Source: an uncultured Methanosarcinaceae archaeon
GTDB lineage: Archaea > Halobacteriota > Methanosarcinia > Methanosarcinales > Methanosarcinaceae
Direction: 5' to 3'
Length of the DNA stretch: 64,000 nucleotides
Assembly (NCBI GenBank): GCA_963833425.1
Contig: CAWHXP010000002.1
Span: forward strand, 64,001-128,000
Shown: positions 13,200-40,806 of the stretch, one piece after another
How positions within the stretch are numbered: the first letter of the stretch is position 1
Layout: each line of letters starts with the position of its first letter
Notes under the pieces: generated by a model
Database searches by the model: none
What the model was told of the DNA's origin: nothing
What the model saw: only the letters and a program-made list of their open reading frames with translations
Made by a program: the position numbers and the translations under genes

Positions 13200-13432
13200 T
13201 AAAGTTCTGTAAAATATGATTGGCTCTTTACCCTTTTCTTTCAATGCAAAAAGTAAAATGCAGAGTCAATAATTTTACTGATAAAGCTTCTATTCCTATT
13301 GTTTTCACTGATGTATAGGTTTGAAAGTAAAACATACTTATATTCTCAACGTTAACTTTCATTACAATTTTTTGCACTAATACCTAACTTACAAGCTTAA
13401 GAGTATAGAGAAACGCAGATCAATTTAATTGT
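13200..13432 (+). repeat. palindromic site GTATAGGTTTG-AAAGT-AAAACATACTT (13313-13339) with conserved flanking modules
   Basis: Left flank matches the reverse complements of 29811-29900 and 40720-40800; right flank matches 27617-27710 and the reverse complement of 36065-36138. Confidence 0.75.
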
Positions 13433-13774
13433 AAACATACTAGTTTTTTAAGTCCAATTTGCTTTTTGATTATAAATCCTAATTATAAATATTATGTTCT
13501 CTTCATGAGTATCATGTAGAATACTCTCTGGTTTAGATGTGATCCTCATATAAAAGTTGTAAATATAAACAAGGAATAGCCACTTATAGGTTCAATGTAA
13601 GATTCTGATTCGATGGCAATGGGTAAGTATGCTGGCCCCCACAAAATAAATCATAGAGTCGCTAAATTTATTGATTTTTCCAAAAATAGGGCTAGTCTGG
13701 GGAAATAGGGTAATAAGAACTCTTTCATGGGTATTAAAGGGGTTTTAATACTTTCTTTACACACACTGGGCATA

Positions 13775-13841
13775 TAATCGATAGAAACTAGTATATTCCT
13801 AATCTATGGAATTATCAAGTTTACAGATAAAATAGGCAAAA
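13775..13841 (+). repeat. dispersed ~65-bp repeat, copy 2
   Basis: TAATCGATAGAAACTAGTATATTCCTAATCTATGGAATT, direct repeat of 12632. Confidence 0.75.
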
Positions 13842-14139
13842 ATCTGGTTCTTCGCAGTTTTGTGCAAATTGAAAATAATTATCCGGTGATATGGCACCAT
13901 CATCTTTCACAGGAACAAGAATATAGTAATAAATATTCTTTAAAAAAATTGGGATATATAGTAGATTCTACAAAAAATATATACGCTGTCTAAATTTTTA
14001 GTACTATTTATTCATTTGAGTCTGTCTTTATATCTTTTATTTTTACCATATTATGGTGGTACATACCTTAAAATTTTTCCTTTAATGCTAACACTTTCCT
14101 TCCTTCTAAAGCATCCTCTTCTATTTTCGAATACTTGAA

Positions 14140-14976
14140 TTACGTGACAGTAATTTTGCTTAATCTCCACCGTGAAATAAGAAACATTATTCCTGCAAAG
14201 GCTACAAGAGCCAGGAATGAAACAAGAACATCTCTCGGAGTATAAGTGTAATGGATCCCTATTGATGAGAAATCACCTCCGATTGTAAAATATCTGATCA
14301 CACTGATGAGATGATTGAGTGGATTGATTGCAGACAGGGCTCTGAGTACAGGGGGAAAAGAGTTCACAGGGTAAAGTGCATTGCTAGCGAAAAAGAAAGG
14401 CATGGTCAGAAGAGTTATTACAGCCTGCATACCCTCTGGACTTTCCATAGTTATTGCGATCGCAACTGAAAGGAAAAGAAATCCGAGAGAAAATATCCCT
14501 ATAAAAAGCATAATTCCAAACAATGAAACAAGAACTTGTAGTTGAGTATAACCTTCAAAAAATTGTACTCCCAGTAGAAGTCCAAAAATCATGATAGTAG
14601 CTGACTGAATAAAAGACTTGATCATACCTGAAAGTCCTATTCCTAGAATGATATGGATCCTTGGCAGGGGGCTTGCAAGAGTCTCTCGCATAAGTCCCCA
14701 GTTTTTATCGAAGAGCAACACAGTCCCCCCTAAGAGACTCGTAAAAAGCGTGGTCATGGCAATAACGCCTGCACCTATGAAGGTCAGGTAGCCTACAGTC
14801 CTGACACCTGGGATCGCTGGCAAAGTTGCTGTCAGTCTATCAAAGTTATTTGACATCGCAATTCCAAAAAAAGCTAGCCATAGGGCCGGCTGGATAAGTG
14901 TAGCGAACAGGAGGGCTCGGAATCGGACAAATCTTAGCATGTCCCGCCAAAATATAGTAAGAAATCCCATATGCAT
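14140..14976 (-). CDS. ABC-2 type exporter permease (DrrB-like)
   Basis: Six TM segments, RETLASP, FFASNALYP..P..L..LS.INPL motifs. Confidence 0.9.
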   Translation of the reverse strand: MHMGFLTIFWRDMLRFVRFRALLFATLIQPALWLAFFGIAMSNNFDRLTATLPAIPGVRTVGYLTFIGAGVIAMTTLFTSLLGGTVLLFDKNWGLMRETLASPLPRIHIILGIGLSGMIKSFIQSATIMIFGLLLGVQFFEGYTQLQVLVSLFGIMLFIGIFSLGFLFLSVAIAITMESPEGMQAVITLLTMPFFFASNALYPVNSFPPVLRALSAINPLNHLISVIRYFTIGGDFSSIGIHYTYTPRDVLVSFLALVAFAGIMFLISRWRLSKITVT

Positions 14977-14977
14977 A

Positions 14978-15850
14978 TCTTAATGTCCTCTTGCCTTCAA
15001 AGATATCTCGTGAACCTTCGGTTTCTGCATCTCTTACTTTCTTCAAGTATAATGAATAAAAACGGCATCCATTGACTGTTTTTGAGATTTACGTCCTTTA
15101 AAGTAATTCCACCAGTTCGAAGTTTATCAGTGATCTCGTGCAGCATATATGTGACATCCACATTGACAATAATAACTATTCACTTCGTTTTTTAACTCCC
15201 TGGGCTCGCCTGCGACAATTATCTAACCTGATTTATATAGCTTATCCTATCGATGAGCTGGTCAACTTCATCAATATAATAGGTTGTCAGGAAAATGGTT
15301 GTGATCTGTTGGTTTATCTATTTTGCATAATCCAATATTCTTGTCCTTCTCTTAAGATCGAGCCCGAGTGTAGGCTCGTCAATAAAAAACACTTTGTCTG
15401 GGTCATAAGCCCTCTTGAATCTCAAGCTTCTTTTCATTCCACCGCTTAGATGTCTTGTTAGAATATTCTGTTTTCCTCTGAGCTCAACCACGTCAAGAAG
15501 TTAACAACCAGCGCATGTCTTGCAATTTTTGCCATATAATAAAATTTTCCATGATATTCTAGAATCCCCTCACCGTCAGATCCTCGAGGGTCAGCTTCTG
15601 AAAAACTATCCATTTTGCCTCCCTTACTTTTTCAGGCTCTGTTATAAGATCCTACTCCCCAATACTTAGCTGCCATTCGGCGTAGGTAAAAGGATGGAAG
15701 GGACATTAATCACGGTACTTTTTCCCTGCTGCATTTGACCCCAGAAATGAAATTTTTTACCCCTTCTTGGTTATAAAACTGATATTGTAGATCGCCTCTA
15801 CCTCGTCGAAAAAATACTCATGGTCCTTTATATATATTATTATCTCCCAT
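14978..15850 (-). pseudogene. ABC transporter ATP-binding subunit, heavily degraded
   Basis: Manual translation shows Walker A remnant FLGSNAAGK and Walker B FLLTSLHSGS in shifting frames; directly upstream of the permease. Confidence 0.75.
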
Positions 15851-16353: not shown

Positions 16354-16371
16354 ATATAGTTTTTCTTATAT

Positions 16372-17214: not shown

Positions 17215-17284
17215 TTAGTTTTCTTGATGAAATACTTCAAAATAAAGATTATTTTGCCGTTTTTTTACCTTCTGCATCTATACC

Positions 17285-18726
17285 TCAATGATTTATTGAA
17301 CTTGCTTTTCCTCTTACCAGAGAAGCAAATATCCCGATGAAACAGAAGATCGTAAACAGAATAAATGCATAGTGCAAACTTAAAAAGAATTGTGGATAAT
17401 AATCAGACTTAATCTCTACAGGGCCAATAAAAATCGCAAAAATCATCATTGCAATACCCATCGAAAGCATCTGACCAAGGAGTCGCATAGTCCCGTTCAT
17501 CCCGGATGCAACTCCGTAAAATCTCTTGTCGACCGAACTCATAATGGCATTAGTGTTAGGGGACGAGAAAAGTCCGTAACCTGCACCAAGAATGAGGAGA
17601 ATAAAAATCAGGTGCCAGAGAGACGCTTTTTCTGTGAGGAAGACGAGTAGGAAGAGTCCAATTGTCGTTAGAGCCATTCCTACAGATGCAACTATTCTTG
17701 GCTCAACTTTGTCGGAAAGCTGGCCAGCAATCGGCGAAATCATAGCTTGGACAACCGGCTGAACAACTAAAATAAAACCTGCATACTCAGGTGTGAAGCC
17801 TTTCGTATACTGCAGGTAAAGGCTCAAGAGAAAAGTCACTGCGTAAGTTGCACTGTAATTAATGAGAGCAGATAGGTTCGAAAAAGCAAAGGTTCGGTTT
17901 TTTGTTAGAAGGGTAATGTCAAGGGCAGGAGAAGGAATTAGCATCTCATACAGAGCAAAAATCAGCATCCCAATAATTCCGACAGCTATCAGAGCAGCAC
18001 CTTTTAAGTCCGGGATGACTGAGAAGCCGTACATGATGGCAAGGACAGCGAGACCGTAGATAATCGATCCTGTCAGGTCAAAATTTTCTCCCTTGCACTC
18101 GGCCCATTCATCTTTGAGTTTCCAGAGATTAAAAGAATTGTTGTGATGCCAATAGGTACGTTTACGAAGAAAATACTTCGCCAGCCAAGAAGGTCTGTCA
18201 TCACGCCGCCAAGGAAAGGGCCGATTGAAAGTCCAATATAAACTGCGGTAATGTAGATACCAAGAGCTCTTCCCCGTTCACCTGGGGGAAAGACAGAGGT
18301 CACGATAGCAACTCCGGTTCCGAATATCATAGCACTTCCTATACCCTGTATGACCCGAATTTCAATCAGCATCTCTGTTGAGGGGACAATTGTCATTGCA
18401 AGGGATGCAAGGCTGAAAAGCGCTATTCCATAGAGATAAATCTTTTTTCTCCCATAAATATCGGCAATTTTTCCGAAAGGAACCAGAAAGATTGCTGCAG
18501 TAAGGAGATATGCAGTTGCAACCCATGAAAGGGCAATTGCGTCCATATGAAACTCTTTCCCCATCGAGGGAAGGGCAATGTTAACTGCTGAGCCGTCAAA
18601 CGGTGTGATAAATCCTGAAAGTACCGCGATGAAAAGTACAATTCTTTTTTTTGTATGTTGGGTATCGATATCAGGAGTTTTGCATGTTCCAGTAAATTCG
18701 GGGAGTAGTACGGGTATTTTCAGCAA
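17285..18726 (-). pseudogene. MFS drug-efflux transporter (DHA2/EmrB-QacA type), single frameshift
   Basis: Two ORFs 18073-18726 and 17285-18034; motifs DGSAVNIALP, GKIADIYGRK, WRSIFFVNVPIG; frame changes near 18125. Confidence 0.87.
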
Positions 18727-24337: not shown

Positions 24338-25196
24338 TGCTACCCTCTTATAAAAGATCTTCAGCTCAAATAAAATTTGCTTAAGGTTGGTTTGTTATAA
24401 TTAATTTCCTAACCATTCATTTGGGTTGAACAGGATGAAATTCATACTTCATTTCCACAAGTGGTTTCCATTTCTAATAATTCAGTTCTGCGTGTATTAA
24501 CATTAGCTATTAATTTTAATATATATAGGACTTGCGCGATTGAAGCATTTTTCTGCAAATATATTTGAAATACCATATTAATATAATAAGCTATTTATAT
24601 ATATCATTATTTTAATTGATGAAATAAATCCACCTTAATTTGTTGAACTTGATAGCATCAAGTTTCTCTTTGCATCTTCTAGATTATCTGCATAGCATTG
24701 TGTTATTCTATCTTCATTAAGTTTCTATACATGCTAATTCGATTTTTTTTCCCTAACAAAGGCAATTTTAATGGGATATTTCATTTCTTCTAGAAGCTCT
24801 CAAATTGAAATTTTAACTTGAAAATCTATCCTCTCTTCACTAATTTGGTCTTCATTTATTTTTAATTAGGCCGCGATAATTTTAAATAGTATATAACTAG
24901 CTTTTCTAGTAGTTAAAAACATGATTTTTTTTTCGAATAAATATCGACATCTTAGGTACACACAAGATGTCTCGTCTTTAGGATCATATTTCCAATCAAA
25001 AGTTGTGAAACTTTCGGAAGATTGTATATGCTTACTCTCATATTTTTTTGTTATACCCTTAGTATATTATTCTTCAGCGAAATTTAGAACTTAATTACTT
25101 ATTAAAATTCGTGAATTTTAGAAAACAGGCCACTGCAAGTAAAGGCAGCGTGCTGAAAGTTCTGAAATTTTGAATAGCTATGTACCCTTTTTTAAT

Positions 25197-25820
25197 TCAA
25201 TAAACAAGATTTACTGATTTTCTTGATGCAGAGATTTTTGAGACGTTTAGCGAAAAAAGAAAGTCTCTGACATATTCAGGTCGAATAACTGTAAGACCAT
25301 CCGGTTTCTGAAATCCTGAAGCAATCTTTGCAATAAGCTTATTCGGTCCGACTCCAACTGAACATGTAATTCTTTCCTGACGTTGAACTTCATCTTTGAT
25401 CTTGATAGCACAAATTGCAGCCTCTTCAAAACTCCTTATCTCAGGTCCTGGCACTAGATAGGCTTCATCAACACTCGCCTGCTGAAACTTCTCAGCAAAC
25501 CCTTTCATGATCTCCATTACGTTTGCCGAAACCTGTGCATAGAGCTTCATGTTGACAGGCAAAAAGACAGCCTCAGGACAGAGTTTATATGCCTGTGAAA
25601 TTGGCATTGCCGAATGAATTCCGTATTTTCGTGCCTCGTAAGAACAGGTGCTTACAACTCCTCTGCCTGACCCCCCTTTAGGGTCAGAACCCACCACAAC
25701 AGGCAGTCCTTTTATTTCTGGCATTTCCCTGACCTCCACGGACGCAAAAAAACTATCCATATCTACATGGAGAACTATCCTCCTTTCGGTATTGTTTGCT
25801 TTAGGATTGGGAGCATGCAT
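25197..25820 (-). pseudogene. dinB: DNA polymerase IV (Y family), 3'-truncated
   Basis: HVDMDSFFASVE, SYEARKYG, SVDEAY, KLIAKIAS..KPDG; homology ends at VSKI near 25233, thumb and little-finger domains missing. Confidence 0.92.
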
Positions 25821-25987: not shown

Positions 25988-26540
25988 TTAGAATAAGCTT
26001 CTTTGCCTGTTGATTTTAAGTGGCTCAATAACTTCTAGATAATTGTTTCTTGGATTTCTTGCTTCATCTCCAACTTCCCATTCTTCCATTTTGTCGTCAG
26101 GGAAGAGCTCCAATAAGGGGCAAAGCTGATCCGCTTCAACAATATCAGGATTCAACCATATGTCTTCATCCTCTTTTTCTAAAATAACAGGCATTCTATC
26201 ATGATATTTGCCAACAGTCGTATTAGGTATTGTAGTAATGATTGTGTAGTTATGGATTTCTTTCATGTTCTTTTTATCTTTCCAAACGTCATACAGCCCA
26301 GCAAAGGCAAAAATTGAATGATCTTTCATCTGGAAATAGTGCCACTGGAAGGGATTTTTTAAAAAATGAATCTTATCTGGTTCGTAAAACCCTGTCGCTG
26401 GGATAAAACAACGTTTATGAAGAAACGGTTGGCGGAATGTAGGCAATTTATCAACTGTTTAGGCTTTAGCATTTATCGCTTTGTATTTATAATGCTCATC
26501 TTCGGCAAAACATGCAGTATATACCTCTTTCTTGTAAGAT
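25988..26540 (-). pseudogene. SOS response-associated peptidase (SRAP/HMCES-like)
   Basis: INAKA*TV (nonsense), RCFIPATGFYE, FAGLYDVW, HDRMPVIL; N-terminal MCGR not found. Confidence 0.88.
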
Positions 26541-27230
26541 CAATTTAAAATCATCATGAATGAGGTTAATTGTAAAGAAATTCTTAAATGTTGTGCTTTA
26601 TCCTGAACTATTCCGCTTTGAATACTTTCACATAACTCGGAGTTTCCTTTTAACCTATAACTCAATAATTCATTTCGAGAATGATTGACATGGACATCTC
26701 TGAAAAGTCATTAGAATGTGTGCTCTTGCTCACTAAAATGTATTGAAAAACAAATTGTTTTAACATTTAATTAAATTTGAATGAGAAATGACGTTGGAAG
26801 CGGACGTATTGGTGTACTCTTGAATATGGCGATGCACTAGTGAAACAAGACGGTTTATCTACAAGTTGGGTAACGGAACATACCTGATGCTATTGCCCTT
26901 GCTCTGATTTAAGTAGGAGCCTGTCTATAAGAGCCAGAGCCAATCTTTTGCTTACTTGAAAGAAAGCAGATGGAAGGTTATTAAAAAATACGTGCAAATA
27001 TGTTAAAAAGTATAGTGTGCATGTTTTCTAATATATATTCAGAAATATAGTAATTAACCATTCCCAATATTTTATAAGACTTTGGGAGTAATTATCTTAT
27101 AATTTGATGTAAAAACAAACTTTATTTTATATGCACTAACGTAATTATTGATCCATTTATCTGATTCTAAAAAATTATTTAAGGAACTACTTGACGGTTG
27201 ATATTTCTGTGATGTTCCTACCAACGGAAC

Positions 27231-27585: not shown

Positions 27586-27712
27586 AAATTAAGAGATTTT
27601 AGCACAAAACATATGTATTTTCTCCATGTCAACTTTCCATTCCAATTTTTGCACTACTACATACACTCACAAGCTTAAGAGCATAGATAAACGCATTCTA
27701 TTTTAATTTCAG
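27586..27712 (+). repeat. palindromic site TAAGAGATTTT-AGCAC-AAAACATATGT (27590-27616) plus right-flank module
   Basis: AAATTAAGAGATTTTAGCACAAAA is identical at 35241; right flank is similar to 13340-13432. Confidence 0.78.
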
Positions 27713-28083
27713 GCAAATCCGATCTTTTTTAGGAAAAATCCAATATCAAATTCTCAACATTTTGGAATAGAAAAAAAATCATTATTAGTATCGAATTGTT
27801 TTTTGATTGTGAAAAATTTGATATAGGGTCATTTTTCGTTTAAAAATTATTTTTCGTATGATTAATTTAAAATAACTATGGGAATAATTGTACGTTGTAA
27901 CTATCGAAAATCAGCTAAGATATTGGTTTATCAAAAATTTTTATAGCATATGTACTATTCATAAATTTTGAATCAAGTGAATGAATAGGAAGATAACAAA
28001 TTCGCAGATCTGGAAATATTTTACACATAATGGAACATTTATAATTTTTTAATACATGGTATATGGAAAAAGGAGAAAAATAC

Positions 28084-29481
28084 ATGATGAATAAAAAAAG
28101 ATAGCCTTAGTTTAACAGCTATGATTTTAGTGCTGATAGGTATTGCAGGTGCAACGCCTTTTGCATACATCACAAACACCGACAGCCACAATGTCTCTGT
28201 AATTGATACTGCAAATAATACACTTATAGCCTCAGTGCCACTAGAACTAGCCTCAGTGCCACTAGAACTTGGGCCTTATGGAGTTGTAGTTACCCCTGAT
28301 GGAACAAATGTATATGTAACATACTTTGTTGGCAGCAATAATGTCTCTGTGATTAGCACAACAAACAACACTGCCTATGCCAACGTACCTGTAGGAAGCC
28401 GGCCTTATGGAGTTGCAGTCAGTCCGGATGGATCAAAAGTATATGTAACAAACCCAATAAATGCAAATATCCCAGGCACCGTCTCTGTAATTAACACAAC
28501 GACTAATTATATTATAGCCAATGTGACTGTTGGAAGGGCTCCTGCTGGAGTTGCGGTCACACCAGATGGAACAAGTGTGTATGTCACCAACCGGTATGAC
28601 TGGACTGTATCCGTAATTAACACAACAAATAACACTGCCTATGCCAATATAACTGTAGGACACTATCCTAATGGAATTGTAGTAACCCCATATGGAACGA
28701 AGGTATACGTGGTAAACCAAGGAGATAGCGACACTAATCCAGAAACTGTCTCTGTAATTGACACAGCAACTAACACTGTTAAAGCTACTGTTAATGTAGG
28801 ACCTACTCCGGAAGGAGTTGCAGTCACACCTGATGGATCAAAGGTATATGTGGCGAACAATGCCAACGCCAATGTCTCTGTAATTGAAACAGCCACAAAT
28901 AATGTTACCACGGTGAGTGTGGGCGGCAGTCCTGTTGCCTTTGGGCAGTTTATTGGTCCCTGGCTAAGAACGCCTACAATCACCTGGAATAATCCTGATG
29001 ATATAGTTTATGGTACACCATTGAGCAATACTCAACTAAATACAACTGCAGCAGACTCAATAACTAGAGCCACATTACCCGGAACTTTTGTCTACACTCC
29101 CCATCAGGAATTGTATTAAGCACAGGTATGCATACATTAAATGTTTCTTTCAAACCAACTGATAATAAAAAATATACTAATGTGTCAGCGAGTGTTCAAA
29201 TAAATGTCCTGACTCCAGTTCAGGAAATCCAACAAATGATTACTTTTATCCAAGGTTTAGTCAATTCAGGTAAACTGAATCCTGGACAAGCTAAATCACT
29301 AATCTTTAAACTGAACGCTGCGAAGAAAAATATAAATCATGAAAATACACCAGCAGCAACTAATGAGCTCAATGCTTTCATTAACGAAGTAAATGCTGAA
29401 ATAAAAACTGGCAAACTTTCTTCAACAGATGGACAGACACTGATTGACGGAGCGAATGCAGAGATTAATGCAATTAAATAA
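28084..29481 (+). pseudogene. YVTN beta-propeller surface protein, frameshifted
   Basis: Repeats P.GVAVTPDG..VYVTN....VSVI; PTITWNNPDDIVYGTPLS Ig-like unit; helical C-terminal domain in a second ORF (29128-29481) after a shift at the C-run near 29100. Confidence 0.87.
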
Positions 29482-29763
29482 CTGAAAACTCTTGAGAATG
29501 CATAATAAATATGAAAAAACAGCTAAAATTTTGGGGGTTCAACAACCCCGTTATATTTTTAAAATACATATAAATAGATCATGCTTTTAAGTTATGGCTC
29601 AACGCTAAAATTTTCCTATTCTTTTTGACTAGATCATTCCATTACATACAGGAATATGCATGTTTTCATCGATTTATCAAAGTAAATACTAGAAAGTATT
29701 AGAAACACATAAGTAAATTGAAAAATTCACTTGACATCTATTTTTGTTTGCCACAAAAAATAG

Positions 29764-29900
29764 AATTTATCGTTTTACTGATGCACAGGTTTATATAGCA
29801 AAAACTATGCATCAGTAAAAATGATAAATCCTGTTATTTGCGATAAAGGCAAAGGTTCAAGAGCCATTTAGAATTTACAGAATTTTTGGTATACTGGCAT
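29764..29900. repeat. palindromic site GCACAGGTTTA-TATAGC-AAAAACTATGC (29783-29810) inside a ~65-bp inverted repeat
   Basis: TTTTACTGATGCA...TGCATCAGTAAAA and ATTTATC...GATAAAT outer arms. Confidence 0.82.
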
Positions 29901-30346
29901 GTAAAAATAATTAAATTAAAGGTTTTACTCCTATTTTAATAAATATCCATAGTAACTGTTTTTGCACAATGTTGTATAGAATTACATAGCATTAACCCCC
30001 ACCTCTACATTTTAATCACATTTTTAATTTTTGCATTTTTGTCATTATTACCATTAACAGACCATATCAATTGTTGCTGGTAAGATTCACACACCCATCA
30101 ATCATCATCATGATGGTCACCAATGTGGATGTCGATGTTCATGGTCCCAATCTTCATGGCCCCAAATAGATATCAATAGGAAAATTAAATGAATTTTTGC
30201 GTTTCCTGCCGAAAATAGGATCAAAGAATTTGCACACGCCAATTATTTGATTATTAAAATTACGTACGGATCGATAAGTCTAATCGCCTTTATTATATTT
30301 CCGAGCCGCTCCATGTTCCCATACAGGTAAATAAGGATCGGTCCCA

Positions 30347-30576
30347 TCTATTGACTTCGTGAACCTATTGCATCCCAATTATAATAGGTATTAAGTTTTT
30401 GTCCTTCCTCTTCTTCTGTTATCCGTACGAATTCTTCTCCAAGGAAGAGCACAGCCTTCTTGTAGACCTTCCCTTCATTGATCTGAAGGTTGACCCCCTT
30501 CTCTGAGTTTTCTTGACAAAGTCCCTTCTAATGGAGATGATGCATATTCAAAAATTTTTTCCCATGTGTTCTTCAT
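30347..30576 (-). pseudogene. small hypothetical protein, frameshifted
   Basis: Manual translation MKNTWEKIFEYASSPLEGTLSRKLRE/GVNLQINEGKVYKKAVLFLGEEFVRITEEE..NTYYNWD; GGAG RBS. Confidence 0.6.
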
Positions 30577-31079
30577 CTCCGTTCACCTTAAGATATATCT
30601 TACCAGATATGTATTATCTACAACTTTTCAGCTGCTATTAGAACATTAAGTTACTAATATATTCCTAATACACAGGTATCCTATGTACTATCCAATATTT
30701 AATAAAGCTTTTTATAGGCCGTAATTAGATTGAAAATAAAGGAAGAACTGAAGAGATAGCAGTAAGCTTAAAAACATGAATTTTTCTAACCTCAAAATCA
30801 AATGTTTTAAATTGATCTGTACTTCGACAAAGATCGTCCACTATACTTGATTGATGTTTCATGGTATCCTCTTCAACACGACCTTTGCTTTCGTTATATG
30901 CTGCACAGCAGGCTGACCCAGCAACGCCAAAATATCGAAAAAAATGAGCTGTAAACTTATTTCGATCAGTTTGGAATAACATCAATAAATTAATGATGGA
31001 CCACCTAGACAAAGTGAATCTCAAAAAGAGAGTCTTTTTAAATTTTTCGGGTTCTTCCCCAATTTTAAAAGAACAAAGG

Positions 31080-32497
31080 GGTTCCGTTGCAAAGATTATG
31101 AGGGGAATTTGCTGAAATAAGTAGAAATTTAGGAGTATAAATTATGCCAGTAAATTCCTTTAAATGGAAACATTATGAAGGAGAAATGATCTTATTAAAC
31201 GTAAGATGGTACTTAAAATATGCATTAAGCTATAGAAATTTAAAGGAAATGATGGCAGAAAGGGGAATAAAAGTCGACCATACGACAATCATGAGATTGG
31301 TACATCAATATTTATTTAGCTGCCACACAGGCGCCTGTGAGTACGAGCCAACAAAGGTAGAAAGGAAAGACTACTGCGCTTTAGACTTTTTGGATTGTCC
31401 GCGCCTTCGCGTTAAACTGTTTAAAATGTACACTTTTTAGATAGTTTATGCACTCTATGGCATGCATTTTCCTACTTGTGACAGGCAAGAGACCAGAAGA
31501 GCTCAGGCATCCGCTCGAATCGGGGAGAAATCCAGGGTAAAAAAGCAGACTTTAGAAATATTCATAATGAATTGATAGGGGAGGTAATTTTATAGATATA
31601 TCAGAATTCAAAAGGTTGCCAAGACATATTGCTATTATACCAGATGGAAACAGGAGATGGGCTCAAGCTAGAAGCTTAGAAAAACATGAAGGGTATGCTA
31701 ATGGAATAATTCCGGGATTAGAAGTATATGAAATATGCGTGAAACTTGGAATAGAAGAAGTTACTTTTTTTGGATTTACTCAAGATAACACAAAAAGGCC
31801 TCGAATTCAAAGAAAAGCGTTTATAGAAGCTTGTGTAAAATCAGTTATAGAAATTTCAAAACGTGATGCCGAAATACTGGTAGTAGGGAAAACTAATTCG
31901 GAAATATTTCCAAAAGAGTTACTTCCATACACAAAGAAAACTAAATTTGGAAAAGGTAAGATAAAGATCAATTTTTTGATAAATTATGGCTGGTATTGGG
32001 ATTTAACGTATGCATATGATAGTTCTTCGGATAAAGAAAAAATGGTAGAAAACATTGCATCAGCAGACATTCCAAGAATAGATTTACTTATTCGCTGGGG
32101 AGGAAGACGTAGATTAAGTGGAATGCTCCCGATTCAAACGGTATATTCAGACATATATGTAGTTGATGAAATGTGGCCAGATTTTAAGCCAGAACACTTG
32201 TATACTGCATTAGAATATTATCAAGATCAAGATATTACATTAGGTGGGTAATTGTTCCAATGCTAAGCTTTCAATCTTTTCGCTCTGCAAGTAAAATTTT
32301 AAAAGGAATTGAAGCTTTGAATATGGTTAAAAAAGGACAAATCAAGAGCTAAACTACTCTGGTCTTATTAAAGCTAAATATAGCAATCAATTATTTGGAA
32401 TAGTTCTGTAATATTGATACATTTTTCTCGGATATTTTGACTTATGTTCATCATCCATATATTTACGTGCTTATTCGGATATTTTTGCAACGGAATC
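31080..32497 (+). mobile_element. IS6-family shell with the transposase core replaced by passenger DNA
   Basis: Left TIR GGTTCCGTTGCAAA plus tnp codons 1-56 (31144-31310); tnp C-terminus (PMLSFQSFRSASKILKGIEALNMVKKGQ) resumes near 32255; right TIR TTTTTGCAACGGAATC. Confidence 0.85.
31592..32251 (+). CDS. uppS: cis-prenyltransferase (undecaprenyl diphosphate synthase family)
   Basis: PRHIAIIPDGNRRWA, INYG, DLLIRWGGRRRLSG, WPDF; GGAGG RBS precedes an in-frame ATA at 31592 (mutated ATG?), TTG 31616 is the alternative start. Confidence 0.88.
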   Translation: MDISEFKRLPRHIAIIPDGNRRWAQARSLEKHEGYANGIIPGLEVYEICVKLGIEEVTFFGFTQDNTKRPRIQRKAFIEACVKSVIEISKRDAEILVVGKTNSEIFPKELLPYTKKTKFGKGKIKINFLINYGWYWDLTYAYDSSSDKEKMVENIASADIPRIDLLIRWGGRRRLSGMLPIQTVYSDIYVVDEMWPDFKPEHLYTALEYYQDQDITLGG

Positions 32498-33985
32498 ATA
32501 TATACTAACTGATTTTCGATAGACTGAATAGTTATTTCTGTGTGTTATATCCAACCAAAATGGACGTTAGTTGATATACATTACATACAAATTTCTTGAT
32601 TTACTCCATAACTTATTAAAATATAACGCGATCATTTAAAAGCCAGATTAATATTTTTAGCCTTTTTAAATGATGAAATACAGCATGATAATCCATGTCC
32701 TTGGGGATATGAGAATAAAACTCTATATCTTCAGGCAATATTATTTAGCATTTGTGCCGACAATTCACAATATAATAATGGACAAACAAGCAAATAAATT
32801 TGATTTTTATGAATCCGCAGATTGTATGATCTAAATGGGGTCAGAGCTAATTAACATGATATTGGCAGTGAATAATTGGGGTCTTAGGATCATTAATTGT
32901 ATATCAAAACTGGATCCTATAAAATTACAGGGGAGATTTAAATTCAGCTGGCGACTATCTTTCAAAGAGCCGAGTGATAATTATTCGCTATCAGACACAA
33001 ACTACACTAAAACGTTAATAATACCTGCAGCTTGGTAGATTATATGTTAGATAACTTATTCACAATCTCTCCCTGTAATACACATAACTATACTAAAAAA
33101 TTTTATTTTGGATCTATACTATAGTGTATTTATGGATCAAGACCTAACATGATAACATTATAATAGATATATTTTATTTATATGTTAAGCAGCTTAATAA
33201 CGTTAACTAATCTGCATAATATGTAGTCTGGATCCTGAAACCACGATAACAACCTTTTGGAATTTTTCTATTTATGATTGTGGTTTAGACTAATTAGTTC
33301 CAAGTGTTCCATGAGAACTATTTCAGAGATTTTTTCTTATTTAGGATGGAGCTATGACCTTTTTAATTTTACATAACTTTTAGTACACTGACATTAAATT
33401 AAAAAAATAACGAAGCTTCTGCCATTAAACCTTACATTGGTATTTGTTGAATTCATATTTTTCCCACAATCATGACAATTGCCTTTACGGACGCATATTA
33501 TGCCACCACATCCAATTCATGTCCATCTTATTTTTTTCATTTCTAAGAAATTCCTTTATACCAAGTTTTTTAATTTTTTCAAGATTTTCAATCATACTCA
33601 TATTGTATTTGGTACGATATCTTTAATCTAAATATTTTAAATCATCACAAGAATATTTTTCACATTCAAAACAAAAATGAATTTGTATTTGTGTGATATT
33701 TACATGATTTAAGTTTGCATTTAGTTCGTGTAATAGGTCTGAAGACATTTTTCCCCTACAATCGGGACATTTATTTTTTTCTCTCAAGTAATCTTACAAA
33801 TGGAACAATCCATTCCTCAGGAAGCAACGATTAGAATTTCATTCAACAAAATCAAGCTCCATTAAAACAAACTACTTTCATACTTTAAGTATGTTCCGTT
33901 ATCATGCTCATGTAGTTTACAGATACATTTGTTTATAGTCTGTCTCAAAAAGCCTTAAAAGTTTACAGATGTAGGATTGGCAAAT

Positions 33986-34076
33986 TCATAGTTTTAATCA
34001 CATAAAACTATGCATCAACGAATTTTATACAAATGTTGACTTCCACTATACATAGTTTTTCACACAAAACATATGC
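33986..34076. repeat. two adjacent palindromic sites (33986-34013 and 34050-34076)
   Basis: TCATAGTTTTA-ATCACA-TAAAACTATGC and ACATAGTTTTT-CACAC-AAAACATATGC. Confidence 0.78.
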
Positions 34077-34349
34077 AAATATGGAGAAGTATTAGAAACA
34101 TAACTACTAAAATATATTTATTAATATATAGTAATTAATCTTTCTATACATTTTATAACAGTTGTGGAGTGATATTATTATCTAATAAGAAAATACATTT
34201 TTATATATAAATTTTGTTATTTATATTAAAATGTTTTCTTAAAAATTCTGGTTTGGGAACAAGTTAATACGCGATGTTTCCGCGGTACCCCTGCCAATGA
34301 AACGTTGTTAAAACGAATAAATAATAAATAAAAAGAAGGAGATTAAAAG

Positions 34350-34886
34350 ATGTTAAAACAAATGAAAAAGACACTTAGTATTTTACTAGCAGTTTGTTTT
34401 TTAATATCCGTAACTGCTTCGGCAGCAAGCGCACACCACGGTCGCTGGGGCGGTTGGGGTCCTAGTTGGGGTGGCTGCCCTTACGCAGCTCCGTATGTAG
34501 CCACATTACCATTTTCAGTCTCTGCAATTCAAGAAATCCCTGTACAGGCTGTTAATTACCGTCCAGCTCAAAAATCAGCTGCAGCAGTAGGTGCAGGACA
34601 CGTTGTTTGTAAGGGGAAGAAAAAAGCTACCTCGAAAACAGTATGCAAAAGACATCCTATGGTCAAAGAGAAGAAAAAAACAATTTCTAAAGTAATAAGT
34701 ACACATGATGGCTGCTGGCGCGGTGAATGTGACTGTGACGAATGTGACTGTGGAGATGGTGAATGCGACTGTGACTGTAAAGATGGATCTTTCATAGATA
34801 CTTTCATAGATATTTTCATACACTGCTTACCTTGCAACGAAAATAGCACATCAGAGAATTGCACCTCAGAAAATTGCACATTATAA
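34350..34886 (+). CDS. secreted low-complexity Gly/Trp-, Lys- and Cys/acidic-rich protein
   Basis: GGAG RBS, signal peptide ending ASA, GECDCDECDCGDGECDCDC tract. Confidence 0.8.
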   Translation: MLKQMKKTLSILLAVCFLISVTASAASAHHGRWGGWGPSWGGCPYAAPYVATLPFSVSAIQEIPVQAVNYRPAQKSAAAVGAGHVVCKGKKKATSKTVCKRHPMVKEKKKTISKVISTHDGCWRGECDCDECDCGDGECDCDCKDGSFIDTFIDIFIHCLPCNENSTSENCTSENCTL

Positions 34887-35240
34887 AGTTAGCAGCTTGA
34901 TTGAAAAATTATAAGTGATTTTTCTGAATAATTAATCACCTTCCTGGTTTTTTATTTTTTATTATTTGTATTTTTACCTAACTGTTTAACTCGTTCTGCT
35001 AACAGACTGTACAATTTCTGCTTTTACATTGGGAAAAAAGAACTACAGAATTAATCACATTTTTCATGACTTTTGGTACACTGCCAGATCTATATAATTA
35101 ATTTCCCCTTATTTTTCTATTTAGGATGGTTGTTTAAGTTAATAATTCCAAGTGCTACATGAGCCCCACATGTTCTATGAGTCCCATAAGCTCCAGGAGA
35201 AATAGATTGAAAATCTTTTCCTATTCCAGATGGGTCTAGG

Positions 35241-35271
35241 AAATTAAGAGATTTTAGCACAAAAACTGTGC
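35241..35271 (+). repeat. palindromic site TAAGAGATTTT-AGCAC-AAAAACTGTGC
   Basis: 24-bp identity with 27586-27609. Confidence 0.78.
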
Positions 35272-35502
35272 ATAAAATTAGAAGACTCAAAAAAAGAAAT
35301 CGGCAATTTTGATTACCTTAAAGAATACCATTTTTGCCCTTGAAATTAGGTGCCCAGTCCATTTAAATTATACATGGAGATAATGTCTATTAACATGAAG
35401 TAACATGAAATTCATTAAATAAAATATTATTTACGTAGTTGATAAGATAGTCAATTTGTCTATGGTCAATTTGTCTATGCATCGCTAGATCAGTATCAAT
35501 CG

Positions 35503-35785
35503 TCAGTTCCACGATCCATATCCATGTTCATTTTCATCTTCATCCCCATGTCCATATGTTCGCGGGGTTTCGCATTCCGGGTTCTCGGCGGGGTTCGCAG
35601 CAGGGTTCGGGATGGTGGTGATAGCGGTATTTGAAGATTTTAGTCTTTCATGTTGAAATGCTATTATGACTGTTTTCTTATCCTTAACCACGATGGATGT
35701 GCGCTTACTGATGCAGCGGTCACGGCCATTAAAAAACAAACTGCCAATAAAATATACTAAGTATTTTTTTCATTTGTTTTAACAT
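35503..35785 (-). pseudogene. paralogous small secreted protein, frameshifted
   Basis: GGAG RBS then ATGTTAAAACAAATGAAAAA, same leader as 34350 (MLKQMKK../LLAVCFLMAVTAASVSA); YRYHHHPEPCCEP in a shifted frame. Confidence 0.72.
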
Positions 35786-36064
35786 TTATTTCACTCCATT
35801 ACGGTTAAATTGATAATTCTATTGAGATTTGTTTTTGTTAACTATTCAAGCTACAAAGAATTAGTTGGTTGATATTTATTACACTAACAATTTTTGATGA
35901 ACTATATTACTTAGTGAGTTTGTTAATTATTTCAATTAATTCTTAAAAAAATAGTCTCTGAATAAAATTTATTTTCCTATGAAATATCTTATTGGAACGT
36001 GAGTTTTAATCCGAAGTAGAAGTATATACTTAATATAAAAATATCGTTTAATTTCAAAATATTC

Positions 36065-36165
36065 AATAGGCATACTTTTTAGTTTGTGAGGAGGTACTAG
36101 TGGATAAAATAGTAATGAAGAGTTTACATTGGAAATATACATAAGTTTTATAGCAAAAGCTATGT
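36065..36165 (-). repeat. palindromic site ACATAAGTTTT-ATAGC-AAAAGCTATGT (36139-36165) plus flank module
   Basis: The - strand flank TTCATTACTATTTTATCCACTAGTACCTCCTCACAAACTAAAAAGTAT resembles 13358-13405. Confidence 0.72.
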
Positions 36166-36330
36166 ATGTACCAATATTATATTAATCATATTTTATCAAA
36201 TGAGAACAATAGATTTATGAAGTTCCAAAATTTACTTACTGGTCTTAAACTTACGCACCTAAAATCAATTGACACACAGCTTTTATATTATTATCATCAT
36301 TTTTCTTGGTATTCCGACTTACGCATTTAG

Positions 36331-37580
36331 TTACCTTAACTTCGGAAACGGAACGGGTTTCAGACCTCTAACATATTCTAATCGATAATCTCTATACAAC
36401 AACTCTTCCAAGGCCTTCCCAGAAGGGACATCTAATTCAATTTCTCTTCCAGATGCACCCCTGCCTTTTCTTATAGACACTCTTTAATCATTCCAATAAT
36501 GGTTAATTCACCAATGGAATTAGAAATCGTTGTTCTGTTTCTAGGAGTTTCACCAATTTCTTCACATATTTGAAAATATATATTTGTAATATCTTTAACA
36601 GTTGTAGTTGGTCGATTATAATTTACAAGTTTTAATATAGACAACAATACTAATTTTTTATGTAATGGCATAGCAGGAGCAAGAGTCAAAAACCTATCTA
36701 TATCTACTTCATTAAATGCTCCATCTATATGTTCAGGAAGTACTTGTGACAAACCATGTTCTTCTGCATATATTGCTGAAGCCCGCAGCAGCTCGATTGC
36801 TTTACGTGCGTCTCCATGAACTCTAGCTGAAATGGCAGCACATAGATTGACAGTTTCTTCCAGAATTGCTCCTTTGTAGAAAGCGAGTTTGACACAGTCA
36901 CATAGAATCATTCGTATTTGATCTACATTGTAAGGATCAAATATATGATCCTTAAAGTTCATTGAAGACTTTACACGGTTATCAAGATCCTTGTCATAAT
37001 GAAGATCGTTAGATATTCCAATTGTAGAAATAAAATGACGGTTCGGGAGTAATCTAGACTCTCCTGCTCTACGTAAATTGTATAGAAGACCATCGTTTTT
37101 TAGATAATCAATTTCATCTAAAACAACCACAATAGAGATGTTCCATTTTTTTGATAATATCCCATAAAGCAGAATAATAATAGTCTAAAGAAAATCCTTT
37201 CATTGGAATTTTAGTTTCTGGATCTATTTGTTTGATTATTTTATACAGTACGCCATTTGGGGTAGGTTTTATCTTGCACGAAATGTACACCACCTTAAAG
37301 GATGATCTAATATTTTTTCGTTTTCCAGTCTTTTCATCAATTTACTTAGTAAGAATTTAGTTACTACGGTTCTCCCTAACCCAGGCTATCCCAAAAATAA
37401 TGCATTCGAAGAATATCCTTTTGAATCGAGTGGTTTGAAAATCCTTGCTCAGTGATTTCGCTTTCCCTTCCAATCAATTTAGGAGGTAGATAGTCTGGAG
37501 AAAGAACATGAGAATCTTTCAGAATTTTGAATAGTTCTCCTCCAAATATTTCTTTGTAGTTTTTCACTACATCTTCATTT
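36331..37580 (-). pseudogene. cdc6: Orc1/Cdc6-family AAA+ protein, disrupted
   Basis: VLSPDYLP..LIGRESEI, degenerate Walker A, VVLDEIDYL, FDPYNVDQI, HGDARKAIELLR; several frameshifts. Confidence 0.88.
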
Positions 37581-37720
37581 AATTTATTTAATTTCGCTAA
37601 AGCTACGCCTTTGCCGTCCCAAACAAGTGAATAGTTCGGGTTAATATCAATCGCTTTATCAAATGCTTTCATTGCATCTTCATACTTGTTTAAATTACCA
37701 AGAGCAGCTCCTTTATTGAA
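37581..37720 (-). pseudogene. TPR-repeat fragment
   Basis: NKGAALGNLNKYEDAMKAFDKAIDINPNYSLVWDGKGVALAKLNK. Confidence 0.8.
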
Positions 37721-37789
37721 GCAACTGAAAAATCCCTTAAAAAGCTATATAATTGTGAATTTGTCTGCGAAGCCGGCGCAAGCGTAACA

Positions 37790-38430
37790 GCTAAACAATG
37801 GTTGAATGAGAATGAGTCTTATCAGTTCACAAAACTTGAAATAAAAACTAAGGCTCTAAGGCTGAATAATACTAACGGAAGGAAAAGGAAGGAGGGAGGG
37901 TACAAACTCCCTATTGATGATGCAGAAATAAAACCAGATTAGGAGAAGATACAGGAAAAAGAACAAAGCTAGGAAAATTAATTTTTGCAACTAATGATCT
38001 AGAATTGACTCCAGATTGACTGCTAAAATACTATAAAGAACATGGAACGTTTAAAGGGGGGTTTAGTTCCTTAAAGATAAGAGCTCCAGGGTAAAATAAT
38101 GTATACCTGAAAAAAGTGACTAAAATTGAAACACTTGTGATAGTAATGTTTCTATGTTATCACTGCATTCGATAGCTATTGGAAATTAAGAACAAGATTG
38201 AATGGCGCAAAAGAACTATCAGAAACCAAGTGAAGAAGAAAACACAGCCTCCAACGTTGAAATGGATTTTCTTCCTGTTCAGAAGAATCACAGAATTAGT
38301 GATTGAAATTAATGGAAATAAGTCCAGAAAGATATTGCAGCTGGATGCGGAAACCATTAAAGTCTTGAAACTAATGTGTGAAAAATACGAAAAATATTAT
38401 GCGTGGAAAAAATAATGCGGAAAATAGGCT
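37790..38430 (+). mobile_element. IS1634-family transposase remnant (3' part)
   Basis: Degenerate IFATNDL, YYKE..GF.FLKD, NQVKKKTQPPTLKWIF; ends ..TGCGGAAAATAGG. Confidence 0.75.
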
Positions 38431-38431
38431 T

Positions 38432-38727
38432 ATGCACCTTATTTTGAAAGCTCATCGATTCAAGCGCACCATGTAAACGACCTATGGATCTTAGCTTCAG
38501 AACTTAAGAACGAACTTGAACGACATAACAGGGAAAGTCGGAAAGCTGTAACTGTACATCGGAAACTTCATCTGGGAATGTAGTAAAGATGAAAAGGACT
38601 TCATTAGTATTACAACGATTTTGCCCTTTCGCATGAGTACAGATTACTTTGTTTAGCAAGGCTCCATAAGGTAAATTAGAGGAATTATCTAATCCAAGAA
38701 GCTTGTGAGTGTTTAAAAGCAATTAAT
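38432..38727 (+). pseudogene. 3' remnant of a phosphotransferase (APH-like) gene
   Basis: Manual translation DLWILASELKN.../YIGNFIWECSKDEKDF...LPF/NYLIQEACECLKAI directly upstream of the HAD gene; family recalled from memory. Confidence 0.45.
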
Positions 38728-38756
38728 AAAGGTAAAATACAATCAATAAAGGGGAT

Positions 38757-39518
38757 ATGGAAGGTAAAAGCATGTCGAACTATGAGTTAGAGACAGATAA
38801 AGATAAAATCACAATTCTGAATGGTCCTACTAGAGAAGAAAGAGATAAACATGAAAGCTGTCAAGTAAAAGGGATTATATTTGACTGCTACCAGACACTT
38901 ATTGATATTCATACTGAGGAACATAACCTGATAACGCATGAGGTTGTAAGCGCGTGGCTTGCCTATCAGGGCGTAAGAATAAAGCCGGAAAAGCTATGGG
39001 GCACTTACATGTTTAAAGTAAGGGATAGAATGCAGCATTCCAAGGAAACATATCCAGAAGTTAGGGTAGAAGAAATATTTGCCGAGATTTGTAGGGAAAA
39101 TTCAATTTGGAAAATTAATGAAAAAATCCTTGGAATAGAGACTTCAAGGGTCTTTCGAGCAGCATCTATACGGAAACTACATCTTTTTCCTCATACCATA
39201 AAATTGATTGATCATTATATAAATATTCCAAAATGTATAGTATCCAATGGGCAGAGAGTTTTTTCCGAATTGGAACTCAGGTTCCTGGGACTCTACGATT
39301 ACTTCGATTTTGTTATCTTCTCATCAGATGTAGGATACCAGAAACCTGACCTTAGGCTTTTTATGACTGCACTCAAAAGAATGGGACTCGAACTCGAGCC
39401 AAAACATGTGATGTCCATAGGGGACTCTTACGAAAACGAGCTAATACCTGCAAGAAAGCTGGGAATGTGCTCCATGCATATTGAAGAAGCATGGAAACAT
39501 TTTGAGCTGAATGATTGA
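38757..39518 (+). CDS. HAD-superfamily hydrolase
   Basis: FDCYQTL motif I, SNG, KPD, GDSYENE. Confidence 0.9.
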   Translation: MEGKSMSNYELETDKDKITILNGPTREERDKHESCQVKGIIFDCYQTLIDIHTEEHNLITHEVVSAWLAYQGVRIKPEKLWGTYMFKVRDRMQHSKETYPEVRVEEIFAEICRENSIWKINEKILGIETSRVFRAASIRKLHLFPHTIKLIDHYINIPKCIVSNGQRVFSELELRFLGLYDYFDFVIFSSDVGYQKPDLRLFMTALKRMGLELEPKHVMSIGDSYENELIPARKLGMCSMHIEEAWKHFELND

Positions 39519-39618
39519 TTTCCAAAAAGGTTCTGTAGAGTCGTAGGAGATGGACGGTTATATATGTTCGATACTCTCTGGGAAAAAAACTCTAATCCTC
39601 CGAAGACTTTATAGAACC

Positions 39619-40640
39619 TTAATAATTGTCACAAATCGGAAATATCAAACTTAGCTTTTTACCCTTTTTTAGCTTGGGTACCGGCAAGCCGGCGGCTGCA
39701 TAGATGATTAATTGACACAAAAAGGAAAAATAATATTTGATTATAAAATACGGATATTCCGGTATTTGATCCACCATATTTCCTCTTATGGTTTTCGGAC
39801 CGCCTGCTGACATAAACTTGGAGAAATCAATTTTTTCGTGATAATTATACTTCCCAATCATTTCCTCGACTAAGATGTAATCTGCATAGGATAAAGTGTC
39901 TAGATGCTGGTCATGCTTGATATTAGGGAAGTGTAACAACTCTTCTTCAAAGTCATTGAGCCAGTTGCCACCTACTTGAAATATGTTTTTTTTGTATTCA
40001 TCCGGATAGTTACTGATAGAGTTCTTGTGAATTTATCCCCTTGAGTTCAAGGTCTAAAACAGGGAAGCTGCCCAGAACTAAATTCTGATAACTCGTTTTC
40101 TCAATCGAGACAGACTCAAAACTAATGGCTACCGAATTCCATTTCTGAAATTGAGTTTTGATAAATTCAACGTGATCCGGACTTTCAATCTCAGTTCTGA
40201 AAACATCCCGGAGAAGCAATTCATTTTTTGGAGCGAGAACCCACGTAGACAAGACAAAGAAGTTAAAATGTGTCTTTGCCGTCCCTGAAGGATCACAGGT
40301 TTGGAATATTACACATTTTCTTCAGGAACTGGTACAATGCCCCTGTTTGTACGTAAAATTATATGTTAACTTTGATTCTGTAAAATATTGATAAAGTTCA
40401 CGCTTTAATAAGTTACCTCGTGCTGTGGAGGCCTTTGTTGGTAGAGAGGCCAAGTATATATCGGCACTCTTGCTCTTATTTTAGTTAATACCTCTTCGGG
40501 ATACTTTTCCCCCATAGTGCCTGACCAGGTCCGGTTCTCTGGTCATATGACGCCTTCCATCCCCCTACATTACAGGATTATGTGTCATCTCCCATGATCC
40601 CCACCGGGGTCTTCCTTCGATATATCCATAAAAGCTTTGT
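39619..40640 (-). pseudogene. phage terminase large-subunit remnant (C-terminal ATPase part plus nuclease domain)
   Basis: Across frames: GPGQALW.EKYPEEVL, LYQQRP, GNLLKRE, IFQTCDPSGT..FFVLSTW, WLNDFEEELLHFPNIKHDQHLDTLSYA. Confidence 0.8.
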
Positions 40641-40691
40641 ATTTTGCGATTTTTTAGCTCAGATTTACTCAAATGGAAGCTAAAATCAGAA

Positions 40692-40806
40692 GCATAGATT
40701 TTTGCTATAAAACTTGTGTATTAGTAAAAACGATAAATTCATATTTCGTACAAAGAAAGGGAATATAAAGTCAATCAGGAATTATAGAACTTTCAGGCCA
40801 CTGTTA
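40692..40806. repeat. palindromic site GCATAGATTTT-TGCTAT-AAAACTTGTGT (40692-40719) plus flank module
   Basis: Flank AGTAAAAACGATAAAT...AGAACTTTCAGGCCACTG resembles 29813-29900 and 25120-25227. Confidence 0.75.

Follow-up and report, generated by a model that had tools for sequence, protein, structure and literature searches.

Dispersed 31-bp imperfect palindromes joined to interchangeable flanking modules in a Methanosarcina-like archaeon and related genomes

Dispersed palindromes with mosaic flanks, such as the repetitive extragenic palindromes (REP), the bacterial interspersed mosaic elements (BIMEs) and the Neisseria intergenic mosaic elements (NIMEs), are textbook features of bacteria, where they mark rearrangement hot spots and sites of mobile DNA. 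In NIMEs, dRS3 inverted repeats flank RS modules of 50-150 bp in many combinations; the elements are intergenic and clustered, and both rearrangement and the insertion of mobile DNA through a trans-acting enzyme have been linked to them. Integron attC sites carry a GTTRRRY core and an inverse core and lie, co-oriented, 3′ of co-oriented and mostly promoterless genes. Sites of the pdif type, as in Acinetobacter plasmids, alternate in orientation around a gene module and have distinct XerC and XerD arms. REP and BIME elements belong to enterobacteria and pseudomonads and go with a RAYT transposase, the gene of which has REPs on its flanks. REP sequences are described in the available portions of PMC2817692 and PMC3733652 as extragenic imperfect palindromes of 20-40 nt arranged in mosaic composites. 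In Archaea each chromosome is reported to have one dif, an 11-6-11 site lying in the terminus region (PMC2958812, PMC8371274). A 64-kb stretch of DNA from a Methanosarcina-like archaeon (the window) was found to carry a family of imperfect inverted repeats of ∼31 bp, shared with several Methanosarcina-related genomes, at the centre of which stretches of DNA are joined pairwise; the joined stretches are non-coding modules of 60-240 bp and segments of 1-3 genes. The evidence favours old sites of recombination or of mobile DNA over gene switches.

A 22-nt pattern of the arm adjoining one of the flanking repeats (module D) was scanned against 185,579 species genomes, the source genome not being among them. 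Exact matches were found at 34 loci, 8 from Methanosarcina/Methanosarcinaceae and 26 being chance matches in AT-rich bacteria and 2 other archaea. The 8 Methanosarcina loci (105.9 kb, ≤20 kb per locus; given by L number where they have to be told apart) and the window make up 170 kb, to which the module copy counts refer; several counts rest on related, non-independent copies. Alignment of the window sites with 12 sites of other genomes gave the consensus ATGCATAGKTTTT-N5-AAAAMCTATGCAT. To avoid circularity, an outside hidden Markov model (HMM) was built solely from the 12 sites of other Methanosarcina loci and applied at a threshold of 10 bits. It recovered 8 window sites, against a mean of 0.02 and a maximum of 1 in 50 dinucleotide shuffles, and its next two hits were a half site (25224-25239, 8.6 bits) and a weak site (13309-13334, 6.5 bits). 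All nine sites listed in a preliminary description of the window were found where it had placed them and the outside model returned no further site in the window, so the earlier list is complete at the sensitivity of the HMM.

An HMM built from the window alone found 15 sites of ≥10 bits in the 8 Methanosarcina loci and 0 in the 431 kb of the 26 unrelated AT-rich loci; these loci also held no further copy of D, and one of them has only the pattern stretch. A rigid pattern with a fixed spacer and ≤3 mismatches matched 2 window sites (0.04 expected), so single sites are degenerate, and gave 0 matches in the related loci, since neither spacing nor arms are constant. No match to D-palindrome-D or D-palindrome-B was present in the phage and plasmid collections. 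On these comparisons the palindromes are taken to be a real and lineage-specific family, present in at least 8 Methanosarcina(ceae) species besides that of the window. Each of the 8 related loci carries 1-5 palindromes, often in runs, as in L024 (1150, 3601, 6086, 8783 and 10033) and L033 (8356, 10033, 13100, 15816 and 18005). Spacing within the runs of the window, L024 and L033 is 0.9-4.6 kb, and the window is free of sites at 1-13 kb and 41-63 kb. All nine full window sites lie outside the 72 window open reading frames (ORFs) of ≥80 aa, as had been claimed. An 11-6-11 geometry had also been assigned; inverted arms around a short centre were indeed found, but the arms are 13 nt around ∼5 nt, or 15 nt around 3.

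The flanks previously named D, B, L2 and P are real repeats, D and B being recovered by nhmmer. D runs ∼100 nt outward from the arm, with 25 copies at E ≤1e-3, 6 of them in the window. B reaches ∼240 nt (3 window copies and 3 elsewhere), L2 is a ∼300-nt composite found in the window, L009, L010 and L033, and P has two window copies of 72% identity. Two modules had been missed, a B copy left of 36139 and module E left of 40692, and a flank called B-like at 34050 received no support from nhmmer. The same intergenic DNA is filled by numerous further families of repeats.

The weakest full site (13311..13339; 9.8 bits, 6.5 with the outside model) lies between the convergent ORFs 12848-13099(+) and 14140-14976(-), with D on its left (13189..13324, minus strand; nhmmer) and B on its right (13327..13459, plus strand; nhmmer E=7e-34), the similarity of this B to L033 extending to ∼13541. 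At 27591..27619 (plus; HMM), which starts 28 nt after the stop of ORF 27231-27563, an L2-type arm (L2 segment 27582-27618, repeat comparison) faces B (27605..27739, plus; nhmmer E=6.5e-38) across the centre AGCAC. The top-scoring window site (29781..29813, plus; 27.6 bits with the outside HMM) has D on both sides (29667..29795, minus, nhmmer E=7.5e-22; 29801..29902, plus, nhmmer E=5.8e-24), and a wider inverted repeat around this D-palindrome-D unit (29754-29840) is 77% self-complementary. No known module adjoins the site at 33984..34016 (plus; HMM), and that at 34048..34077 (plus; HMM and rigid pattern) is followed on the right by P (34107..34181, plus; repeat comparison). L2 borders the left of 35244..35273 (plus; 19.1 bits, centre AGCAC) as a composite (34969..35243, plus) which contains a D-core piece (35017-35091), shows 82% identity over 307 nt to L009 4948-5251 and is also matched in L033 (8199-8361) and L010 (12118-12300). 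A partial B (36072..36150, minus; nhmmer E=1.1e-6) lies left of 36137..36167 (plus; 17.0 bits, centre ATAGC, found by both HMM and rigid pattern). The site at 40690..40722 (minus; 13.7 bits), of opposite centre polarity, joins E on its left (40628..40689, plus) to D on its right (40710..40810, plus; nhmmer E=1.2e-15), and the same E-palindrome-D composite occurs in L024 (9994-10115, 77.6% over 125 nt). A degenerate palindrome (63843..63873, minus; 11.1 bits) lies upstream of the rRNA operon; the last window copy of D (63895..63973, minus; nhmmer) would have its palindrome end at or past the end of the window. The positions 25228 and 26985, listed before as half or degenerate, are true half sites. 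The first is a single arm (25226..25238, minus; 8.6 bits with the outside HMM) attached to D (25144..25237, minus; nhmmer E=3e-15) and joined to a truncated DinB gene, and the second is one arm (26985..27002, plus; compared by eye with 34050-34110) followed by P (27028..27100, plus; repeat comparison).

Arms were compared according to the module beside them. Identity was 0.72 for arms of the same module (187 pairs) and 0.66 for arms of different modules (432 pairs; label permutation p=0.025), and opposite arms of one site were no more alike (0.69) than all arm pairs (0.71). At each of the four sites with two different known modules, each arm was the variant of its own module. The arms thus track their own flank and not the opposite arm, and therefore the half site is inherited with the flank and the join lies between the arms. 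D was found joined to D in at least three cases, to B and to E in two cases each, and also to L2; L2|B was a further combination, and D stood beside sequence unique in the data set in at least 5 cases. One D subfamily, marked by a 36-nt internal insertion, has B as its partner in the window (the copy at 13189..13324) and L2 as its partner in L010 (11992-12094). Between copies sharing one flank the similarity continues through the palindrome and ends there, and 18 of 19 D copies with an intact site-proximal end face a second arm, whatever lies beyond it. Exchange of flanks at the site, as first proposed from the varied module pairings, is supported by these results.

One further arrangement was observed at the L2-bearing site. 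A 130-nt stretch (window 35319-35454, L009 4804-4930) is on the right-hand side of the L2-palindrome unit in the window and on its left-hand side in L009, in the same orientation, so that the order is circularly permuted between the two; a tandem or circular intermediate would explain this. The proteins neighbouring the permuted unit in the window and in L009 are unrelated.

In behaviour the family is closest to the bacterial mosaic repeats, the E. coli BIMEs and above all the Neisseria dRS3/RS elements. Here, as in BIMEs and NIMEs, several repeat motifs accompany a short palindromic unit in changing order; this class is descriptive and carries no mechanism. With NIMEs the family shares a dispersed, intergenic, clustered inverted repeat that is bordered by varied modules and linked to rearrangement, but it belongs to a different domain of life, has unrelated sequence and arms of 13 nt rather than 6, and no integrating phage or IS110-type recombinase is tied to the sites. 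Like REP it is an extragenic imperfect palindrome of 20-40 nt in many copies; unlike REP its arms follow the flanks, its hairpins are weak and without covariation, and the GTAG/CGTC head is missing from the consensus.

The distance from T-run to A-run was identical in 22 of 29 alignable sites, the rest deviating by +1 to +3 or -7. The centre is asymmetric, reading on one strand as three variable bases followed by A or G and then by C, and gives each site a polarity that is independent of gene direction. Neighbouring polarised pairs were co-oriented in 16 of 17 cases (p ∼1.5e-4 for random orientation, by a rule devised after the centres had been seen). Six window sites from 27604 to 36152 have one polarity and those at 40706 and 63858 the other. 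The interval in which the polarity switches (36152-40706) contains a C-terminal Cdc6/Orc1 fragment of lid and winged helix only (36471-37130). A promoter reading, suggested by a TATA-like centre in five sites, was dropped as most centres are not TATA-like.

A conserved hairpin was rejected, arm complementarity being 8.71 of 12 both within and between sites with no covariation. RNAalifold predicted 0 pairs on 10 palindrome+D copies. An RNA gene was likewise discarded; with E allowed up to 1, Rfam produced just two hits, both at chance level, in window 11-42 kb and L033 7.8-10.3 kb. Single-stranded DNA folds of the nine window sites ranged from -0.5 to -6.5 kcal/mol and one of the nine beat all 200 shuffles. 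The only clearly stable hairpin in the window is that of 33984..34016 (-6.5 kcal/mol, z=-8.6), the other eight folds lying at -0.5 to -4.7 kcal/mol. Because there is no arm covariation, no consensus fold and only one stable hairpin in nine, recognition as duplex half sites fits better than recognition as a hairpin.

Flank-linked half sites, a full site at nearly every junction, fixed spacing and an asymmetric, co-oriented centre together argue for conservative duplex exchange. In such a scheme a protein reading two duplex half sites would exchange strands conservatively in or beside the asymmetric centre, and mobile segments would integrate serially at existing sites, so that arrays become co-oriented and sites hybrid. 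The degenerate sites and half sites would result from decay and illegitimate deletion at a later stage, and the putative enzyme would be encoded elsewhere and act in trans. As the best-fitting explanation, it is tentatively proposed that the palindromes may be att-like joining sites of small mobile segments, mostly probably relics, served by such an enzyme.

The co-orientation of neighbours also bears on a second explanation, in which the palindromes are mobile hairpin repeats, similar to REP or palindrome-associated transposable elements (PATEs), moved as single strands by an HUH (IS200/IS605-type) transposase, the palindrome serving as the enzyme's hairpin and the modules as element interiors. 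Replication-coupled single-strand insertion yields co-oriented neighbours, as found here, and the similarity between copies often stops at the outer edge of the palindrome. In L033 a fragment of TnpB (OrfB_IS605; 8905-9654, minus) lies between two family palindromes, one with D 420 nt upstream of the TnpB start and the other ∼190 nt past its end, in the position of a right-end hairpin. This resembles a PATE, with similar small palindromes at both ends and no terminal inverted repeats or target duplications, but it is the single TnpB case in 170 kb and a fragment only. A PATE has like hairpins at its left and right ends in common with an intact TnpA/TnpB element of the same genome, and no such intact element was encountered here. 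The sequence from the TnpB end to the palindrome is not repeated at other sites and matches nothing in the window. Among the scanned window frames there was no TnpB or Y1 remnant. The weak folds of eight of nine sites and the lack of covariation show no hairpin conserved as a structure; in addition, modules stand on both sides of one shared palindrome, and hybrid arms that track their flanks are unexpected if the hairpin moves as a unit. IS200-type Y1 transposases do occur in Archaea, whereas the REP-associated (RAYT-type) subclasses are reported absent from them, according to the available portion of PMC6006769; the REP-defining GTAG/CGTC head (PMC3733652, available portion) is lacking here. 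Movement by an HUH transposase is regarded as unlikely. The TnpB gene of L033 is frameshifted (8400-9654, minus); ahead of it is an 82-codon frame that has a membrane-like stretch and starts inside D.

Rearrangement boundaries were compared with the positions of the sites. A 2.4-kb tandem duplication in L024 (1233-3616 and 3725-6101, 82%) has an end exactly at the outer edge of an arm. L009 1-1377 and L010 11577-10166 share 1.4 kb at 89-92% identity that extends as far as a palindrome common to both, past whose edge the two are unrelated, and a 360-nt similarity between L024 811-1168 and L027 10376-10015 (73%, maybe between paralogous copies) also ends at the palindrome. In the window, a DinB/DNA polymerase IV fragment (25233..25820, minus; residues 1-196 of ∼330-360; Pfam IMS, BLASTP, tblastn) borders the first half site. 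Its homology ends at residue 196, base 25233, and overlaps the six inner bases of the arm without partner; the C-terminal part was not found in the window or the 8 loci. In all, four rearrangement boundaries coincide with a site, and neither an indel (12252-13906) nor a synteny break (15955) falls at a palindrome.

The DinB junction, sharing 6 nt with the arm, is microhomology-like, and with the second half site at 26985 it accords with a third explanation: decayed foldback MITEs (miniature inverted-repeat transposable elements) and small repeats whose flanks were mixed by homologous recombination and by breakage and microhomology joining at AT-rich palindromes, with no dedicated enzyme. The D-palindrome-D unit at 29754-29840 would be such a foldback (an 88-nt inverted repeat, 77%), many further families of repeats make the region a patchwork, D-core pieces exist without sites, and Methanosarcina spelaei is among the MITE-richest archaea in the part of a MITE census that was available (PMC11602168). 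Random breakage would, however, not be expected to give the fixed spacing or the co-orientation described above, nor to leave the second arm at 18 of 19 D ends, even beside sequence unique in the data set, and the present hairpins are too weak for easy cruciform extrusion. Target duplications were inconsistent: in 10 palindrome+D units the longest shared end word averaged 5.8 nt against 5.07 nt in mismatched pairs, and words of ≥7 nt were shared in 3 of 10 units against 7 of 90 mismatched pairs. Enzyme-free mixing of decayed MITEs is considered improbable. A classical MITE, which has terminal inverted repeats and a target-site duplication around a unit of less than ∼800 bp, was rejected, there being no consistent target duplication at unit ends and most units being asymmetric; among the units only the D-palindrome-D forms are inverted repeats.

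By eye, no link was found between the end of D and the terminal repeat of an IS6-family element in the window (∼834-1688; DDE_Tnp_IS240, frameshifted), whose terminal repeats begin GGTTCCGTTGCAAAAA. The element sits between 243-nt inverted-repeat arms (607-849 and 1671-1913, 82%). A second, diverged copy (31144-32498) is 84-86% and 77% identical to the first and ∼570 nt longer in mid-element, where, oddly, an undecaprenyl-diphosphate-synthase-like ORF is found (31616-32251).

Several results weigh against the proposed att-like sites acted on in trans. No integrase, resolvase, Y1 or TnpB domain was detected in 50 of the 72 window ORFs of ≥80 aa, nor was any of these recombinase or transposase domains found in 78 of 137 small frames at 11-42 kb; the preliminary description had stated that the window holds no recombinase gene, and for the frames scanned the Pfam search agrees. 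In the 8 related loci (79 of 163 frames scanned) the search gave only an integrase fragment in L024, ∼7.8 kb from the nearest site, and the TnpB fragment of L033. The centre sequences are not the same from site to site and the spacing is aberrant in 7 of 29, by which a tyrosine recombinase would be hindered. The effect of module on arm identity is small and the copies are related, hence not independent; the polarity rule is post hoc, and one agreeing pair stems from a duplication. Six D-core copies occur without a site, so modules were also shuffled away from palindromes. The sole clean indel relative to the closest relative, L033, is a 1.65-kb segment (∼12252-13906) missing at the orthologous place there, which holds a BofA-like ORF and the 13313 site and has neither end at a palindrome, and the synteny break at 15955 falls in a D fragment. 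An empty-site test in which the L033 TnpB segment was compared with window 35258 scored 42, which is not significant (shuffle maximum 48). Copies are 65-90% alike, and the family therefore looks old, with no sign of present activity.

Two genes of L024, a primase-polymerase gene (13472-14320) and the C-terminal integrase-family fragment (17885-18454), probably belong to an integrated element; no family palindrome adjoins them.

Integron and pdif arrays are the closest cassette systems. Runs of co-oriented imperfect palindromes separate 1-3-gene segments in L024 and L033, the unit boundary in L024 lies at the outer edge of the palindrome, and an enzyme in trans, putative here, is common to both cases. 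L024 has four consecutive gene-D-palindrome units, and D adjoins the 3′ end of a gene in 11 of 17 cases as read from the ORF tables; in L033 and the window genes run in both directions. The attC core motif is absent from the consensus, however, modules of 100-240 nt stand beside the sites, and no integrase domain or attI was found in the ≤20 kb available per locus apart from the distant L024 fragment. With pdif the family shares two arms around a short centre and segments that lie between sites in different contexts. It differs in that neighbours are co-oriented rather than opposite (16 of 17), arm variants follow modules and not two fixed arm classes, and no Xer gene was seen among the scanned frames. 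NIMEs and BIMEs, integrons and pdif each have at least one tested defining feature that this family lacks.

An archaeal counterpart of these arrays would consist of a recombinase, encoded elsewhere, that uses an asymmetric 31-bp site to join and move small segments carrying genes and so builds co-oriented cassette arrays of 1-3 genes in variable regions, candidate arrays being window 25-41 kb, L024 1-10 kb and L033 8-18 kb. That the sites form such a system is doubtful. The working gene-cassette system suggested earlier was not substantiated: the indel against L033 lies off the site, the empty-site test was negative and, among the frames scanned, no recombinase gene stands beside a site.

The inverted arms around a short centre and the exchange of flanks at the site had also suggested that these might be genuine Xer/dif or pdif-type sites on which the host XerA acts. 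The archaeal dif, described in PMC2958812 and PMC8371274 as one 11-6-11 site per chromosome near the terminus, differs in both copy number and geometry from the sites found here, nine full ones in the 64 kb of the window and 15 in the 105.9 kb of related loci, with their 13-nt arms and variable centres, and there was no xerA-like gene among the scanned window frames. The Xer/dif label was therefore not retained, and recombination by XerA is extremely unlikely.

Sites for a dimeric DNA-binding protein (operator or nucleoid), or two-way terminators, would need no role in DNA exchange. The arms match the consensus without compensating changes and carry T-runs on both strands, and a pair of paralogous genes (34350 and ∼35785) each has a site 273-367 nt upstream, the site at 34048..34077 being 273 nt upstream of ORF 34350-34886. 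On the other hand, 25 sites with both neighbouring genes known are divided between 7 convergent, 14 tandem and 4 divergent gaps; the distance to gene starts is not fixed, 60-240 nt of conserved flank travel with each arm, and rearrangement boundaries coincide with sites. An operator at a fixed place was rejected on the mixed gap types and inconstant distances, and binding sites or terminators as a whole are judged very unlikely. ORF 34350-34886 is signal-peptide-like and has no Pfam match. Its start is repeated inverted (34338-34435 and 35698-35797), the copy at 35698-35797 being a pseudogene full of stops, so that the site at 35244..35273 lies between a gene and its decayed inverted paralogue, the two copies facing each other across it.

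No description of such a palindrome family in a methanogen was found in the literature covered, which did not include the sequence catalogue of the PMC11602168 census. Should the sites serve, or once have served, as substrates of a trans-acting enzyme, they would account for some of the large, repeat-rich intergenic DNA and of the variable regions in Methanosarcina genomes, and would offer a starting point in the search for a new archaeal recombinase or transposase. As relics alone they would still mark where rearrangements end and probably cause breaks in assemblies.

The window has a G+C content of 28-40% outside the rRNA genes, and its genes include those for MC1 chromatin protein, AnfO, KdpD and a Roc-COR/LRR protein (Pfam). 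The best named relative of the DinB fragment by BLASTP is from Methanosarcina barkeri. A 16S-23S-5S rRNA operon lies at 57292-62051 on the minus strand; its 16S-23S spacer is 172 nt and without a tRNA by ARAGORN, the sole tRNA of the window being tRNA-Thr (134-205). The region at 11-42 kb is poor in intact genes, with fragments of DinB, SRAP, Cdc6/Orc1, MFS, TPR and ABC ATPase genes and long stretches without a Pfam match, and is, judged from these frames, rich in pseudogenes. An ABC ATPase remnant (15321-15500) has an intact counterpart in L033, an MFS transporter is split into two frames (17285-18726), SRAP is without its N-terminus (25988-26446), and TPR remnants lie at 37376-37744. An unrelated repeat family of ∼180 nt occurs in the window (12020-12219, 27772-27902 and 35923-35991), L010 and L033. 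Two-copy repeats were found at 40917-41054 and 48202-48337, 11653-11729 and 46422-46498, 24808-24919 and 56689-56796, and 12629-12672 and 13772-13813.

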